Of a stretch of DNA of 64,000 bases, positions 55,201 through 63,611 are shown one piece after another. Source of the stretch: a candidate division WOR-3 bacterium (GTDB lineage Bacteria > Hydrothermota > Tepidihabitantia > Tepidihabitantales > Tepidihabitantaceae); contig CBFGKH010000003.1 in assembly GCA_965649295.1 (NCBI GenBank), forward strand, positions 190,615 through 254,614, given 5' to 3'. Numbering within the stretch: the first letter of the stretch is position 1; every line of letters starts with the position of its first letter. A program made the position numbers.

Positions 55201-58200
55201 CGGCCAAAGCACCGGCAACCGACTCAACTGCGGTAGCCGCTGACGTCTCCTATAGCAAGGAGATTCAGCCCATCTTTGCCAATAGCTGCATGCCTTGCCA
55301 CTCTGGCGCTACCGATGCCAAGTCGAAATACGACCTCTCGAAATACGAAGGGGTGATGGCCAAGGTCGTGGCTGGCAAAGCCGACTCCAGCCTCTTGTAT
55401 GTCATCCTCAAAGACGGCAAGATGCCGCCATCTGGCCCGCTGCCTGCTGCCACAGTCGAACTAGTCAAGAAATGGATTGACCAGGGCGCCAAGAATAACT
55501 AGCGTTCCCCATCGTAGTAACGCCGGCCGCTCGAAAACGGCCGGCGTTACCTTGACTCCACTGTCAGCCGCCCAATAATAGTTCGGTCCTGATAAGTACA
55601 AAGGAGCCAACCCATGCGCTTAGTCCTTTCCGTCCTGCTGCTAGTCGGTTGCAGCACCCAGCCTGACGCAATCCCTGACAGTCCCTCATTCTCAGGTCAT
55701 GTGCTGCCAATACTCACCGGCAAGTGCGCCAGCTGCCACGCTGGTACATCGGCCAGTGGCAACTACGACCTGACCAGTTACACCGGAACCATCTCGTCGG
55801 GTTCTGACTCAATCGCCAATGTCATCGCTGGCCAGGCTGATTCGAGCGTCCTCTACCGCCGTATCACTGGCGCTGACCAACCCCAGATGCCAATCGGCGC
55901 CCCGCCGCTCGACACTATCGCGACCGGCACCATCAGAAACTGGATAAACCGCGGTGCCCAGAACAACTAGGAGCATGCTGTGTCTCGAACATTACTCACA
56001 CTTCTGCTGATTGTCGGCACGCTCCTTGCGAACGCTGCCAATCCGCCAAACGGCAAGACCGGCCGACCGACCGAAGGCACTTGCGCTGACTGCCATTCTG
56101 GGCCTGCCGGCAGCGCCGATTCGACCGAACTCGCCGGCTTCCCAACCGGCGGCTACGTGCCCGATTCGTTCTATCTCCTTACACTGTCGGTCCGCTATGC
56201 CGGCCAGACACGTTGGGGCTTCGCGCTAACAGCAGTGAACGCGGCCAACACCCGCGCTGGCCAACTGGTTGTGACCGACTCGGTCAACACCCAGTACTCA
56301 AGTATCGAACCCGGCTACCTCAAACAAACCAGTACCGGCACACGCCGTGGCCAGAACGGCCCCATAACCTGGACATTCGGCTGGCGTGCGCCGGCGGCTG
56401 GCACCGGCCCAGTCAAGTTCTACTGGTGCGCCAATGCCGCCAATAACAACTCCTCGACCAGCGGCGATGCCATCTGTCGTGACAGTTTGACAATCGCCGA
56501 GTGGAGCGCAATCGAGGAGCCGGCACCAGCAGCAAGGCGAGTTGTCTGGCAGCTACGCAACCCAGCCCGGGACCGCGTCACTATCAGCTACGACGGCGAC
56601 GCCACGAGACCGGTCGAGGTTTACTCTGCTGCTGGTCGCCTGCTGCGGCGACTCCAACCGGTAGCTAGCCACGGGACATTGCTGGTCACTTGGGATGGTC
56701 GCGACCAACGCGGACGCCTGGTGCCTGCGGGCAACTACTTTGTCCGCCTCGGTAATGGCATCAATCGCCTGCTCAAGGTTCAAATTGCCCGTTAGGACAA
56801 AACCAAGGAGTCAATCGTGCCCCTTCTCTTGGTCTTCTTAGCAGCATTTCCCGGCGAACGTATTGCCAATCTGCCAACCGGTCAACTTCCCGAACCTGGT
56901 CTCTGGCAGATAAACATCTCCCATCGGTTTCTGCCGTCAGTCACTGCTCAAGGCTGGGGTGAGGATATCCTCCAATTCCTCAACGGCGCCGATGTCCGCG
57001 ATGTCATTGACAGGTCTTTGACCGAGCGTTTGACAATCGGCGCATCGCTTACCGTCGCGACTCGCGAGCTCGGACTGCACGCAGCTTGGGCTCCGCTTGA
57101 CTGGCTCACATTCTACCCCGAAGTCAGTGCCGATATCCGCCAGTTCGCCATCGAACGCACCTGGGCCAACATCGGCATTGCCGTTCATCGTCCATTCTCG
57201 GGCCGGCTAGCGCTGGTCGGCCAGCCCCGCCTGACAACCAACACCAAGCAGTTCTACGGGTCACTCGGCCTCGGGCTGAAGGCCGCGGTCCTGCCATCGT
57301 GGTGGCTTGGCATTGAGACCGAACCGGTCCTTGTCGGCCGCGACACCACAACAACCCTCGTTCCCTGGACATTGACGATCGACCGCCAGCAAGGTTGGCA
57401 CAACTTTGTGTTGACCCTTGGTTCATCACTGCGTCAGTCTGCACCAGGCTGGTTTCGCACCTATCGCCATGCCGACGCCTACGACGATATCGTTGATGTT
57501 ACCAAAGGCCACTTCCGCGTCGGTTTCAACATCCTCCGTAAGCTCTAAAAAGGAGAAATCATGCAACTCACTGCTGATATCCGTTGGGCCGGCCGAATGA
57601 CCTTCATCGGCAAGGCCGGTTCGAACCATCTTGTTCCGATGGACACTACCGCCGACTTTGAAGGCGACTCGTCCGCGACCAAACCTCTCGAGCTGGTGTT
57701 GATTGCCTTGGGTGGTTGCACCGGCATGGACGTTGTGCCGCTGCTCAAGAAGATGCGCCAATATGTTACTGGCGTCACCTTGAACATCACTGCGGAAAGG
57801 AGCGAGGAACACCCACGCGTCTTCACGAGCATTGCCATTGAATACGTCGTGACCGGCCGCGGCATTGAGGAAGAAAAGGTCAAACGAGCGGTTGAACTAT
57901 CCCAGGAGAAATACTGCTCAGTTTCGGCCATGCTGAAAAAGGCCTGCCCGATTAGCTATCGCTGGCGGATCGTCGAAGCCTAGTTCTGACAGACGACCGG
58001 CGGCGAGCAGATGCTCGCCGCCGGTATTGTTTTCGCTTCTCGCTACCGCTCCACGACCAGCTTGGCAACCGCGGTAGAGCGAACGTTCTCGATGGTCACA
58101 AGATAGACACCAACCGCAAGTTGAGGCAGGTCAACCGCAACCATACCAGTCCTAAAGTGCCCGAGCGACATCCCCAAGACGCGCCGACCAAGAGCATCAT

Positions 58201-61200: not shown

Positions 61201-63611
61201 AGGATAGGCTACCTGAGGCACCGGCATTGAGCGCGATGCTCTGACTGTTGCTGTACCCGGACGAGATTGCGAAGGTGACCGGAATGTTCTCGCTCACGGT
61301 CCCGGCGTTACGAATCGTCGCTGTTGGCGTGAAGGTTGCCGTGCCCGGCGCATAGACGGTGCCACTAATCGGCACGGTAATCGCATCAACTGCCGCGTCG
61401 TGAATAACTGGACTGCTCCCCAGATACTTAATCGCCCGAGCCGTATCGAGCGGCAGCGCACCGGGATGGTAGCTGCCGTTGTAGAGGCACTGAATCGAGT
61501 GGCCCTGGCCGTTGTCCTGCATCCCGACGGTAGTTGACGTCGCACTGCCGTAGGCACGCTTGTATTGAGCAATTAGCACACTGTTGTCCGACCCACCCGC
61601 CGCATTACTGATAATGAGCTGAAACTTGTCGCGCAGCGGACTGCTGTAGTGCGCAATGCTGTCGTACTCGATTATGAAACGGTTGTTGGCCTGGTCATGG
61701 TAGTACCAGATGCCGTTACTGGCAGCCGGATTGAGGTCATCCCAAGCTAAGGCGACCATTGCCGGCATCAATCCGTTGGGCAGCGCGGTATTGTTCCAAG
61801 CGACGCTCGTCGTCACACCCGGTGCCACCCAGCCATTCGAGCAGATTGAGAGTTGGGTGTAATCCTGACCATACCATCGCCAGACAAAACCCGTTGGCAG
61901 AGTGAGCGTGATGGTCTGGTCGTCACCGATGCTCAGCCGCGTGCCGATTGGATTTATCTCAACCCAATTGTAGGTCGGCCGCTGTGGATAGCCGGTGTCG
62001 CCATCGTCATAGGCCTGGTAGATTGGTGGACAGGCGTCTGGAATCGGGTCGTTCGGCGTCATCACCCCAACAGTGATGTAGATCACCCTTGTTACGTTGT
62101 AGCCGCTGGCCGAAAGCAGCAGGGTGCAGGGCACAACTGTGCCCAAGGGCAGCAGCGGGCTGGCAGCCGCCGCGAACCGGTCACTGGCATTGCTCGCACT
62201 GCTGTTGGCCGGAATCGTTCCGAACGCGCTGGTCGAATCAGTGATTACGAAATAGGGGTTGCCGGATCGAAGAACGCCGGTGACGGTGTTGGCGGTCTGG
62301 TTGCCAACATTGTAGAGAACAAGCTGCAACTGGCCGCTTTCCCCTGGGTCCAACCGGCCGTTGTTGTTACCGCCTGGGGTCGGATCAAGCACGGTGAGCG
62401 GACCAGTGGTAAGATACGGCCCGTTACCAACACTCTGCAGCGAGAAGCTATCGGCGAGGACCCTCGCCACTGGGTTGGTTCAGCCGTCCTCAGTGTAGGT
62501 GTACAGCGATACCGTTACCTTTGCGACCTGGGTCGGGTTCACGCCCGGCAGATTGGCACTGAGCTCATCGGCGATGTTCAGTGTATAGCGCTCCCAGTTG
62601 TAGCTCGTCACATCAACCAGATGCAGGGTAGGGCTTGAAGTCCATGTGCAGTAACTGTCGTGCTTGTAGAAACGTGTTTCGCCTAGCACCACCGAAGCCG
62701 AGTTGCGATACTCAACGCAGACTGCGGCCACTGCCCAGCAAGTCGGCGAACTGCCGACAATCTGCATGTTGGCGGTGAATGATAGATTCAGCGCTGCACA
62801 GGGAACGGTGACTGTCTGGCTCAACCGTCCCCAGCCAGGGCCGTCGAACAACGAATCACGGGCCTCGTAATCAGGGTCCGGGTGGAACCCGGTGCTGCGG
62901 TCAATCGTAACTGTACCGACGCCGCCCTGCTGTGTAACCCATCCGGTACTCAGGCTCTGCTCGAACCCTCCGTTGATGAGCAGCTCCTGACCGAAAAGTC
63001 CGGTCACGACCAGGGCGACAAAAAGAACCACCTGTTTCATTCTGTCGCCTTCCTACACCCCAGAGATAATTATACACGACAGGAGCGGCATCGGTCAACC
63101 AGGACAACCAACTGGTGCAGGGGTTTTGACCAAATAGCAACTGGCGGCAAAAGAAAACCCCGGCAGCGACCTACTCTCCCATGCCGTTACCAGCACAGTA
63201 CCATCGGCCCTGGAGGGCTTAACGACTCTGTTCGGAATGGGAAGAGGTGTGGCCCCTCCGGTAAAACCGCCGGGAAAAACCTAATAAGGAGAAGAAGCAG
63301 ACCGAAATCTCAAGCCGCACGGCTGATTAGTACCACTCGGCTGAACGCATTGCTGCGCTTACACCTATGGCCTATCACCTGGTAGTCTTCCAGGAGCCTT
63401 CAGCGTGTCCAACCTTGCGGCCGGACACAAGGGAGACCTAATCTTGGGACTGGCTTCCCGCTTAGATGCCTTCAGCGGTTATCCATTCCGTACTTGACTA
63501 CCGAGCAATGCCCTTGGCAGGACAGCTCGTACATCAGAGGTACGTCCACCCAGGTCCTCTCGTACTATGGGCAGCTTCCCTCAAGTCTCCTACGCCCACG
63601 ATGGATAGAGT

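Follow-up and report, generated by a model that had tools for sequence, protein, structure and literature searches.

The window analyzed here is a stretch of 64,000 nucleotides of contig CBFGKH010000003.1 from an uncultured candidate division WOR-3 bacterium. An upstream ORF at 62480-63040 (-) encodes 186 aa and is terminated by a TGA at 62482-62480. The downstream ORF, 58043-62470, continues the same frame, and translation with the TGA read as U gave one chain of 1,665 residues. The genome-wide survey's note had described a single in-frame TGA splitting one frame at 58043..63040, and the ORFs and this translation bore it out. The features are listed in Table 1. The gene neighbors encode OsmC, DUF5777, and other T9SS-type proteins.

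Table 1. Features of the selenocysteine candidate gene and its TGA-less paralog (window positions)
Feature	Position	Strand	Basis
Whole gene, 1,665 codons plus stop, with a single in-frame TGA (U187)	58043..63040	-	Frame translation
Signal-peptide-like N-terminus MKQVVLFVALVVTGLFGQ, the sole one in the gene	62987..63040	-	By-eye reading of the translation
N-terminal CBM-like β-sandwich domain, residues ~18-205, with the TGA inside	62426..62989	-	AF2, Foldseek
Cys101 codon (TGC), motif S-P-T-C-W / S-T-C-W-P, candidate partner of Sec187	62738..62740	-	
TGA very probably read as selenocysteine (U187), loop between the last two strands	62480..62482	-	Translation, alignments, AF2 model
SECIS-type hairpin, stem GGCGAG / CTCGCC, loop GGUC, within the codons for A-R-V-L-A	62453..62468	-	
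Conserved middle module, residues ~206-560, motif ICSNGW, common to the ~650-aa paralogs	61361..62425	-	
Best-scoring Ig/FN3-like repeat (Ig_Rha78A_N), residues 762-846, in a run of such repeats	60503..60757	-	
Kelch motif, residues 1315-1346, in a probable β-propeller region	59003..59098	-	
T9SS type A C-terminal sorting domain, residues 1588-1663	58052..58279	-	TIGR04183
TGA-less paralog (g00723), 641 aa; Sec-site loop longer and free of Cys, Ala in the Cys101 column	9650..11575	-	

The C-terminal sorting domain scored 30.5 bits with TIGR04183 (cut-off 23) and 35.1 bits in a second search, and Pfam Por_Secre_tail scored 24.5, under its cut-off of 27. The genome probably encodes a T9SS, given an SprA_N match of 56.7 bits and 92 CTD matches; the signal peptide of the window gene was judged by eye. 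The middle module had no match in Pfam. The product would be a single pre-protein of 1,665 residues, consisting of a signal peptide, a CBM-like head, the middle module, Ig/FN3-like repeats, a Kelch region, and the T9SS sorting domain. It would probably cross the inner membrane via the Sec translocon and then reach the cell surface via the T9SS.

The N-terminal domain was modeled using AF2 (pLDDT 94.4, pTM 0.90). Foldseek matched the model to CBM-type β-sandwiches, with E values of 1e-7 to 1e-5 and TM scores of 0.4-0.58. The strand encoded after the TGA (model residues 175-187) lies within the confident fold (pLDDT ~92-93). Model and Foldseek results agreed with the earlier view that the TGA falls in a CBM-like jelly-roll, immediately ahead of its final strand. 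Sec187, in the context G-U-T-N, is predicted to sit in an exposed, Gly-flanked loop preceding that strand.

Conservation of the TGA and the hairpin behind it

The family was found in 107 of the 272 genomes of the phylum, and all 150 matches listed contained exactly one TGA. Of 95 full-length domain hits, drawn from 94 loci, 93 had U at the site. One TGA at one alignment position in nearly all hits and in every listed match excludes chance. Weak matches without a TGA stopped before residue 188, and the ten that were fetched all had a TGA just past the match. In eight other families of the phylum, U together with a GGUC hairpin was present in 17/17 loci.

The family is multi-copy, with up to nine matches in one relative. 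The paralogs on C2 (196725-196147, -) and C9 (82075-82653, +) carry the TGA at the homologous position, as reported before. The earlier count of three TGA copies and one TGA-less copy in this genome stood, but a fifth member on C11 had been overlooked. It is a stand-alone domain of ~225 aa with SAC-U-G and this hairpin as well.

The genome's own TGA-less paralog (C3:202189-201641) had been taken for the only full-length match in the family's genomes without a TGA. This was incorrect, as G013:C1:2500103-2500690 also lacks one and has Cys at or beside the Sec site. The absence of Cys from the site in TGA-less forms was true of the own paralog, yet it did not extend to the wider family. Six of 15 aligned TGA-less relatives (P0003, P0011, P0024, P0080, P0149, and P0147) have Cys in the Sec column, three more have Cys 1-3 residues away, and six have neither. 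Several TGA-less relatives, the own paralog among them, lack Cys here, and the residue therefore appears dispensable for the fold.

The hairpin had been placed 14 nt after the UGA, which is correct when counted from the T and equals 11 nt past the last base of the TGA. Across the family, the spacing was 11, 14, or 17 nt. The hairpin was present in 92/92 distinct aligned sequences, and 550 of the 552 cells of the six core pairs were paired. Controls slid along the alignment had just 21-65% of cells paired. The apical loop was N-G-U-N, with the G and U at positions 2 and 3 invariant in all 92 sequences. The covariation score was 0.256 versus 0.146 in shuffles, and none of 500 shuffles reached it. 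The compensatory stem change described earlier was confirmed and extended: both-sided changes occurred at four of the six core pairs (2, 7, 41, and 3 cells). Pair 24/33 consists of two synonymous third positions, GCG>GCA changing with TCC>TCT in seven sequences, and at pair 25/32 E>K is coupled to S>F in 41 sequences. Covariation of this kind at these two pairs indicates a constraint on the RNA rather than on the protein.

No Rfam family matched the hairpin. PMC8659212 describes the E. coli element as an upper stem-loop 11 nt from the UGA with conserved loop bases G23 and U24, and a bulged U as required in the upper stem. The window gene shares with E. coli fdhF-type genes the in-frame UGA, the short stem-loop at 11 nt, and the loop G-U (here within GGUC). 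It differs in that its 6-bp stem is perfect, without the bulged U (U17 of the E. coli upper stem), and a lower stem was not established. The products differ as well: fdhF-type genes encode a cytoplasmic molybdoenzyme, whereas the window product is a predicted secreted β-sandwich surface protein. With its 6-bp stem and GGUC loop inside the codons A-x-V-x-A, the hairpin makes a clean, compact, and strongly covarying natural variant of the SECIS.

Decoding of the UGA

tRNA-Sec, SelA, SelB, and SelD are encoded in this genome, as in E. coli. The tRNA-SeC gene is at C5:88305-88399. SelB and SelA scored 345 and 576 bits, respectively, and two selD genes each contain one TGA; all these protein matches exceeded curated cut-offs. 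RF2 is also encoded (483.7 bits), so UGA is a stop elsewhere in this genome. With presence scored at E<=1e-40, selA was found in 101 of the 107 genomes that carry the family versus 21 of the 165 that do not, an association overstated by the fact that kin are not independent. Six family-bearing genomes had no selA match at that threshold, of which five were rechecked (the sixth is G041). G043, G171, and G188 have tRNA-Sec scores above the gathering score, and G203 scored 45.0 against a gathering score of 47. In G176, which consists of one contig and is rated 90% complete, all that was detected was a remnant of selA (70 bits), and no tRNA-Sec candidate was convincing.

We consider it very probable that the UGA encodes selenocysteine within one exported protein. 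This reading, proposed in the survey's note, was well supported by the Sec machinery, the covarying hairpin, the conservation of the TGA, the co-occurrence with selA, and the exchange of Cys and Sec. By the E. coli fdhF paradigm, SelB carrying Sec-tRNA(Sec) would bind the coding-sequence hairpin 11 nt downstream, and the UGA would be read as Sec instead of a stop.

Two genes could lie here instead. A secreted 186-aa protein would then end at a true UGA, and a 1,475-aa frame would re-initiate at a GTG four codons on, or at an ATG in the C9 copy. Gene callers do split the frame at this point, and ~130 of the best 150 hits in public protein sets are fragments of 185-195 aa cut off at the TGA. The ATG of the C9 copy, raised earlier as grounds for two genes, does follow the TGA immediately. 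However, the residue encoded after the TGA varies (G, S, M, or T), leaving no conserved start. The frame is intact across all 150 listed matches, and the short members have only ~26 codons past the TGA. By the AF2 model, the strand after the TGA would be needed by the fold. The T9SS tail lies in the downstream part, where no signal peptide was seen by eye, and the hairpin covaries at the RNA level. Two genes are therefore very unlikely, and the fold, the tail without its own signal peptide, and the short members uphold the earlier view of one secreted protein. Bacterial Sec insertion is often inefficient, and some shortened product is likely made too.

The UGA might also be read without selenium, by a near-cognate tRNA-Trp, as Cys, or under a changed code, the hairpin merely slowing the ribosome or blocking release factor 2. 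Downstream hairpins can promote read-through in other systems, and W occupies the column in the database relative P0054, where a gene caller using another code is an equally possible source. Against this stand the presence of RF2, the fact that tRNA-Sec was the sole tRNA found for UGA, and the tracking of selA by the family. The invariant loop G-U at fdhF-like spacing is a SelB recognition signature, and TGA-less relatives substitute Cys, not Trp. Selenium-free read-through has little chance of being the explanation.

A candidate partner cysteine

The survey's note had described a lone Sec without a fixed neighboring Cys. This description was not supported, since 98 of 110 Sec domains have one candidate partner Cys. 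Cys101 alone was present in 52 domains, a near Cys alone in 45, both in one, and neither in 12. Cys101 thus occurs in 53 of the 110, and 45 of the 57 lacking it carry a Cys between positions -3 and +5 relative to Sec (CU, UxxC, or CxxU). In the clade of the window gene, every sampled member (47/47) has Cys101 as well as Sec. The own TGA-less paralog has neither.

The CU dipeptide was found in 28/93 members of the first set and 11/17 of the second, and UxxC in just 6/93. Within the C9-like clade, the adjacent Cys was gained or lost repeatedly (14 CU versus 9 none). The state of Cys101 changed three times on the tree, giving two or three independent pairs, with which a sign test cannot attain significance.

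The co-occurrence of Cys101 with Sec, the near Cys in most other members, and the absence of both from the paralog suggested from sequence that a lone Sec is no more likely than a Se-S pair or a two-ligand S/Se site. Whether taken as a Se-S or a S,Se pair, the specific assignment (Sec187 with Cys101 here; CU, UxxC, or CxxU in other branches) may be correct, with chances a little short of even. The role we favor, much less certain than the decoding, is that Sec and one cysteine act together, either as a selenenylsulfide that would form reversibly or as a soft-ligand (S,Se) site that would bind a ligand on the protein's head.

Such a bond might also be structural. Acting as a staple between the last strand and the sheet, a selenenylsulfide linking Sec187 and Cys101 would outlast a disulfide under anoxic, sulfidic reduction. 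Se-S bonds have redox potentials below those of S-S bonds, and the clade-wide presence of Cys101 with Sec, together with their joint absence from the TGA-less paralog, fits a staple. The vicinal CU of other branches would be unable to staple distant strands, and 12/110 domains are partnerless. TGA-less relatives probably fold without the cross-link, judging from their conservation, and a costly Sec machinery would be an unusual price for a staple. We regard this structural role as unlikely.

Known families and the role of the selenocysteine

The window domain shares its β-sandwich fold with CBM_4_9 / cenC-type modules (PF02018) and with the CBMs of 2c26, CBM61 2xom, and CBM11 1v0a. Like them, it starts with N-G-x-F-E and ends in an A-D-D-x-S-L strand, and the nearest named clusters in the Atlas are 'CBM-cenC'. 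The Pfam CBM_4_9 model did not match the window domain; at E<=1 it hit only 7 of the 95 members, the best at 0.0011. We know of no CBM with selenocysteine.

NCBIfam selenoprotein models, including NF045500, gave no match to the family. The NF045500 group (Omp28-related / HBP35-like T9SS selenoproteins, 'GOS_C') is likewise exported, and some of its members have a T9SS tail. Its proteins are thioredoxin-like with UxxC, whereas the window family is a CBM-like β-sandwich. The window gene does not fit a thioredoxin-fold UxxC/CxxU selenoprotein, its modeled fold being a β-sandwich and its motif G-U-T-N. The earlier statement that the family is unrecognised so far agrees with its absence from NCBIfam 20 and from the covered part of a 2026 review table.

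Many family members resemble the CU selenoproteins SaoC, SaoB, SaoL, and HgcA in having Cys directly followed by Sec in Gly-rich surroundings (such as NCUG, ACUG, or GCUG). The Haft and Gwadz preprint links the otherwise rare CU of these proteins to heavy-metal handling, including proteins that face the extracellular milieu; some Sao proteins are likewise exposed outside the cell. Unlike the CU selenoproteins, with which it has no sequence or fold relation, the family has no conserved metal-handling neighborhood, and the window gene has G-U-T, not CU. A Cys-Sec pair is known elsewhere too, as thioredoxin reductase ends in Gly-Cys-Sec-Gly.

It is conceivable, though doubtful, that the exposed Sec, alone or together with one Cys, is a surface site for Hg, Cu(I), Cd, metal sulfides, or polysulfide/elemental sulfur, serving in binding and not in redox catalysis. 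The frequency of CU in both sets of members agrees with this role, and the domains without a partner Cys are easier to reconcile with ligand binding than with a redox pair. However, no further metal ligands (His, Cys, or Asp clusters) were conserved among the invariant columns, and no metal-handling genes adjoin the window gene.

More generally, we tentatively propose that these are phylum-wide, multi-copy 'selenium-tipped' surface proteins. An exposed Sec, usually with one Cys, on a lectin-like head might capture a ligand by Se chemistry. The ligands envisaged are soft metals, metal sulfides, polysulfide, or thiols carried by a substrate or a partner cell.

For annotation, hundreds of database entries are cut at the TGA, and the largest surface proteins of these genomes are mis-annotated as two genes. 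To our knowledge, bacterial selenoproteins are nearly all cytoplasmic or periplasmic redox enzymes. Sec in the lectin-like head of surface proteins predicted to be exported by the T9SS, with several copies in each family-bearing genome, would broaden the known uses of selenium. Spending Sec machinery on abundant surface proteins has a cost that calls for explanation. If the 'selenium-tipped' reading is true, these proteins would be a selenoprotein class that acts extracellularly and lies outside the thioredoxin-type redox folds.

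A very probable single protein across the in-frame TGA

The window gene was read as two ORFs in the same frame, interrupted by a single TGA (see the table), as the genome-wide survey's note had described. Translation with TGA as U gave a product of 1,665 residues with U187. The N-terminus of this product (MKQVVLFVALVVTGLFGQ) was signal-peptide-like as judged by eye. Its C-terminus carried a T9SS type A sorting domain (TIGR04183, 30.5 bits vs a cut-off of 23), and the score with Pfam Por_Secre_tail was 24.5, below the cut-off of 27. In the Pfam search, Ig/FN3-like repeats and Kelch motifs were located between these two ends, and no family matched residues 1–200 and ~206–560. 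T9SS signs in the genome were SprA and 92 sorting-domain matches in 2.28 Mb, which makes the share of surface cargo very large. The window protein is probably exported to the cell surface.

The part downstream of the TGA contains the T9SS tail and no signal peptide of its own, and family members do not conserve a start codon directly after the TGA. A protein library of 1.84 billion representatives was searched with the domain profile, which matched 626 proteins (E ≤ 1e-3). About 130 of the best 150 were pieces of 185–195 aa ending at profile position ~184–187, as expected from a gene caller that stops at this TGA. The head domain (residues 17–215) was modeled using AlphaFold2 with the 95-sequence alignment as input. 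The model is a beta-sandwich (pLDDT 94.4, pTM 0.90), in which Sec is located in loop 168–174 and the long last strand 175–187 is encoded beyond the TGA (model numbering). The window gene very probably encodes one protein, not two, and Sec appears to be exposed in a Gly-flanked loop at its head. Foldseek matched the model to CBM-type beta-sandwiches (2c26; CBM61, 2xom; CBM11, 1v0a) and to phage tailspike binding domains, with E of 1e-7 to 1e-5 and TM of 0.4–0.58.

Features of the window and of other contigs of the genome (contig handles C1 and C11)
Feature	Location	Strand	Remarks
ORF, 186 codons	window 62480-63040	(-)	ends at TGA 62482-62480
ORF, 1,475 codons	window 58043-62470	(-)	same frame as the 186-codon ORF
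Perfect hairpin GGCGAG-GGTC-CTCGCC	window 62468-62453	(-)	starts 11 bases after TGA
TGA-less paralog	window 9650-11575	(-)	641 aa
OsmC-like gene (thiol peroxidase family)	window 57561-57980	(+)	converges on 3' end of window gene
Second giant Kelch protein, 1,351 aa	window 50856-54908	(-)	FlgD_ig-type domain at end
271-aa protein	window 55980-56792	(+)	also FlgD_ig-type end
Short family member	C11:6271-6950 (= fetched locus L107:691-1413)	(-)	..SAC-U-GLYLAAEVSAR..; GGUC hairpin; 26 codons after TGA
selD	C1:355394-356299		one in-frame TGA (Sec-containing SelD); directly adjoins selB
selD	C1:318451-319377		one in-frame TGA (Sec-containing SelD)
selB	C1:356367-358244		345 bits

Decoding of the UGA

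The genome contains the genes for Sec decoding. ARAGORN found tRNA-SeC (anticodon tca) on contig C5, and selA (576 bits), selB and both selD genes scored above their curated cut-offs. The genome also has prfB (RF2, 483.7 bits), and the ARAGORN tRNA search found no UGA-reading tRNA other than tRNA-SeC; on this basis, a changed genetic code is rejected as an explanation. A pseudogene or sequencing error is ruled out by the conservation of the TGA at more than 250 loci.

The hairpin downstream of the TGA was analyzed in an alignment of 92 distinct sequences that runs from the UGA through the following 42 nt. Its core of six pairs was paired in 550 of 552 cells, and both-sided changes occurred at four of the six pairs (2, 7, 41 and 3 cells). 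Covariation scored 0.256, vs 0.146 ± 0.010 for shuffled alignments, and none of 500 shuffles scored as high. When the 3' arm was slid as a control, pairing was only 21–65%. A seventh, outer pair was unsupported, being unpaired in 37 of 92 cells. The codons that contain the hairpin encode A-x-V-x-A. One covarying pair consists of third codon positions at which both changes are synonymous, GCG>GCA (Ala) and TCC>TCT (Ser), and the commonest one couples unrelated residues: Glu/Ser (GAG..TCC), Lys/Phe (AAG..TTC) and Arg/Leu (AGG..CTC). As an RNA element, the hairpin does not simply follow from the encoded protein sequence.

The loop was GGUC in 83 and AGUU in 9 of the 92 sequences, with invariant second and third bases (G and U). 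Across the family, the spacing from UGA to stem was 10–11, 13–14 or 16–17 nt and therefore changes in whole codons. In the E. coli element, according to the accessible part of PMC8659212, the upper stem-loop lies 11 nt from the UGA, U17 is bulged, and the SelB-binding loop bases G23 and U24 are conserved. Compared with that description, the surface-family hairpin agrees in spacing and in the loop G-U, whereas the bulged U is absent. An Rfam search with the hairpin matched no family. In both selD genes of the genome, the downstream hairpins are of a different type from GGUC, so that they gave no internal SECIS control. Overall, we consider it very probable that the UGA of the window gene is decoded as Sec.

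The genome was also scanned for a TGA followed by a GGTC-loop hairpin, with an open frame on both sides. The scan returned four surface-family members and six other sites: C1:36831(-), C2:29289(+), C3:57683(-), C8:38452(-), C10:62573(+) and C13:10796(-). At least one of the six resembles an ATGA gene overlap.

Distribution of the family and of the Sec trait

A tblastn search of the genome recovered three paralogs, all named already in the survey's note: two with the TGA, on contigs C2 and C9, and the one in the window that lacks it. The hairpin-based scan added a fifth member, absent from that note, a stand-alone domain of ~225 aa on contig C11. The same short form was present in at least 13 relatives (fetched loci L077–L092).

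Of the 44 genomes in the family-level group to which this genome belongs, 39 had family matches. Among the matches listed, each one extending beyond residue 188 had exactly one TGA, except G013:C1:2500103-2500690, a copy in another genome of the phylum. The survey's note had named the own paralog as the sole TGA-less exception; its TGA-less state holds, and the G013 copy is a second one. For a domain set, 90 loci from relatives and four stretches of this genome were translated in six frames with TGA read through and searched with the domain profile. It gave 97 matches, 95 of which cover the site, with U in 93. Of the remaining two, the own paralog has a longer loop that lacks Cys, and the G013 copy has Cys (..ETSC-PPPF..). 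A weak match, G030:C4:225564-226064, contained one TAG and one TAA and is probably a decayed copy.

In the whole phylum, the domain was found in 107 of 272 genomes (E ≤ 1e-8), and every one of the 150 matches listed of 264 had exactly one TGA. Eight other families of the phylum contributed 17 further loci, and in each of these a single U occupied the equivalent position and the GGUC hairpin was present. selA was present in 122 of the 272 genomes. Family and selA occurred together in 101 genomes and were both absent from 144, with 6 genomes having the family only and 21 selA only; related genomes are not independent, and these counts are given without a statistical test. Some entire family-level groups had neither. 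The surface family follows the Sec trait across the phylum.

Of the six genomes with the family and no selA match, all but G041 (74% complete) were rechecked. In three of them (G043, G171 and G188), tRNA-Sec scored above the gathering score, and in G203 it scored 45.0 vs a gathering score of 47. In G176, selA was reduced to a 70-bit remnant and no convincing tRNA-Sec reached the gathering score. Its assembly is a single contig of 2.4 Mb, rated 90% complete, with two family copies that carry the TGA. G176 may be in the course of losing the Sec trait, or its assembly may be faulty.

Nineteen long matches span the Sec site without a TGA, and 15 of them were aligned to the profile. Their residue in the Sec column was Cys in six, another residue with Cys within 1–3 residues in three, another residue in five and Trp in one. 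By eye, the four unaligned relatives comprised P0126 with Cys close by, P0104 with Cys in the last strand, and two without Cys. The surface family thus shows the replacement of Sec by Cys that is typical of selenoproteins, but the Sec-site residue is dispensable for the fold. The Trp belongs to P0054, a short-form relative of 200 aa; it may be a TGA that the gene caller translated as W with another code.

Candidate partner and possible role of Sec

The survey's note had described a lone Sec. This was not borne out, as 98 of 110 Sec domains have a candidate partner Cys. Cys101 (S-T-C-W-P, 86 residues upstream of Sec) occurred without a near Cys in 52 domains, and a Cys at -3 to +5 of Sec (NCUG, ACUG, GCUG, UGGC, CAGU) without Cys101 in 45; one domain had both and 12 had neither. 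This near-exclusive alternation suggests one sulfur partner for Sec. The window protein belongs to the Cys101 group; the own TGA-less paralog has Ala at the Cys101 column and no Sec. The one domain with both, L119 (G156:C48:49850-50750), combines a Cys101-type motif (TLCWA) with a vicinal CU and could represent a transition between the two arrangements. In a tree built without the row of the window gene itself and without two partial matches, Cys101 changes only three times and there are 2–3 independent pairs, too few for significance; Cys adjacent to Sec was repeatedly gained or lost inside one clade. Most members would thus have Sec with a variable, still unproven, single-Cys candidate partner.

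Our tentative best guess is an S/Se pair that works as a reversible selenenylsulfide or a soft two-ligand site capturing a ligand. Alternatively, Sec as such could bind metal or polysulfide. The CU motif in family members supports this alternative, and the accessible text of Haft and Gwadz links that motif to heavy-metal handling. Sec could also be part of a structural staple that resists reduction. The neighbors of the window gene (OsmC-like, DUF5777 barrel, a small FlgD_ig protein and a giant Kelch/FlgD_ig protein) gave no metabolic hint.

No model of NCBIfam release 20 matched the head domain, and a full-text literature search returned no description of the surface family. A 2026 review (PMC13188914) tabulates prokaryotic selenoprotein families; in the rows covered, most of the table except the first ones, none is of this kind. 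Secreted, T9SS or CBM-like selenoproteins are unmentioned in the accessible parts of the deep-Sep article (PMC12013277) and of the BSepDB paper (PMC13326102; main text, family list Table S2 aside). Within these sources, the survey's proposal of an unrecognised family of extracellular selenoproteins stands, with a probable cell-surface site. Recoding of the UGA uses the mechanism already known from bacteria. What is new for selenoproteins, as far as we have checked, is the protein family with its fold and location.
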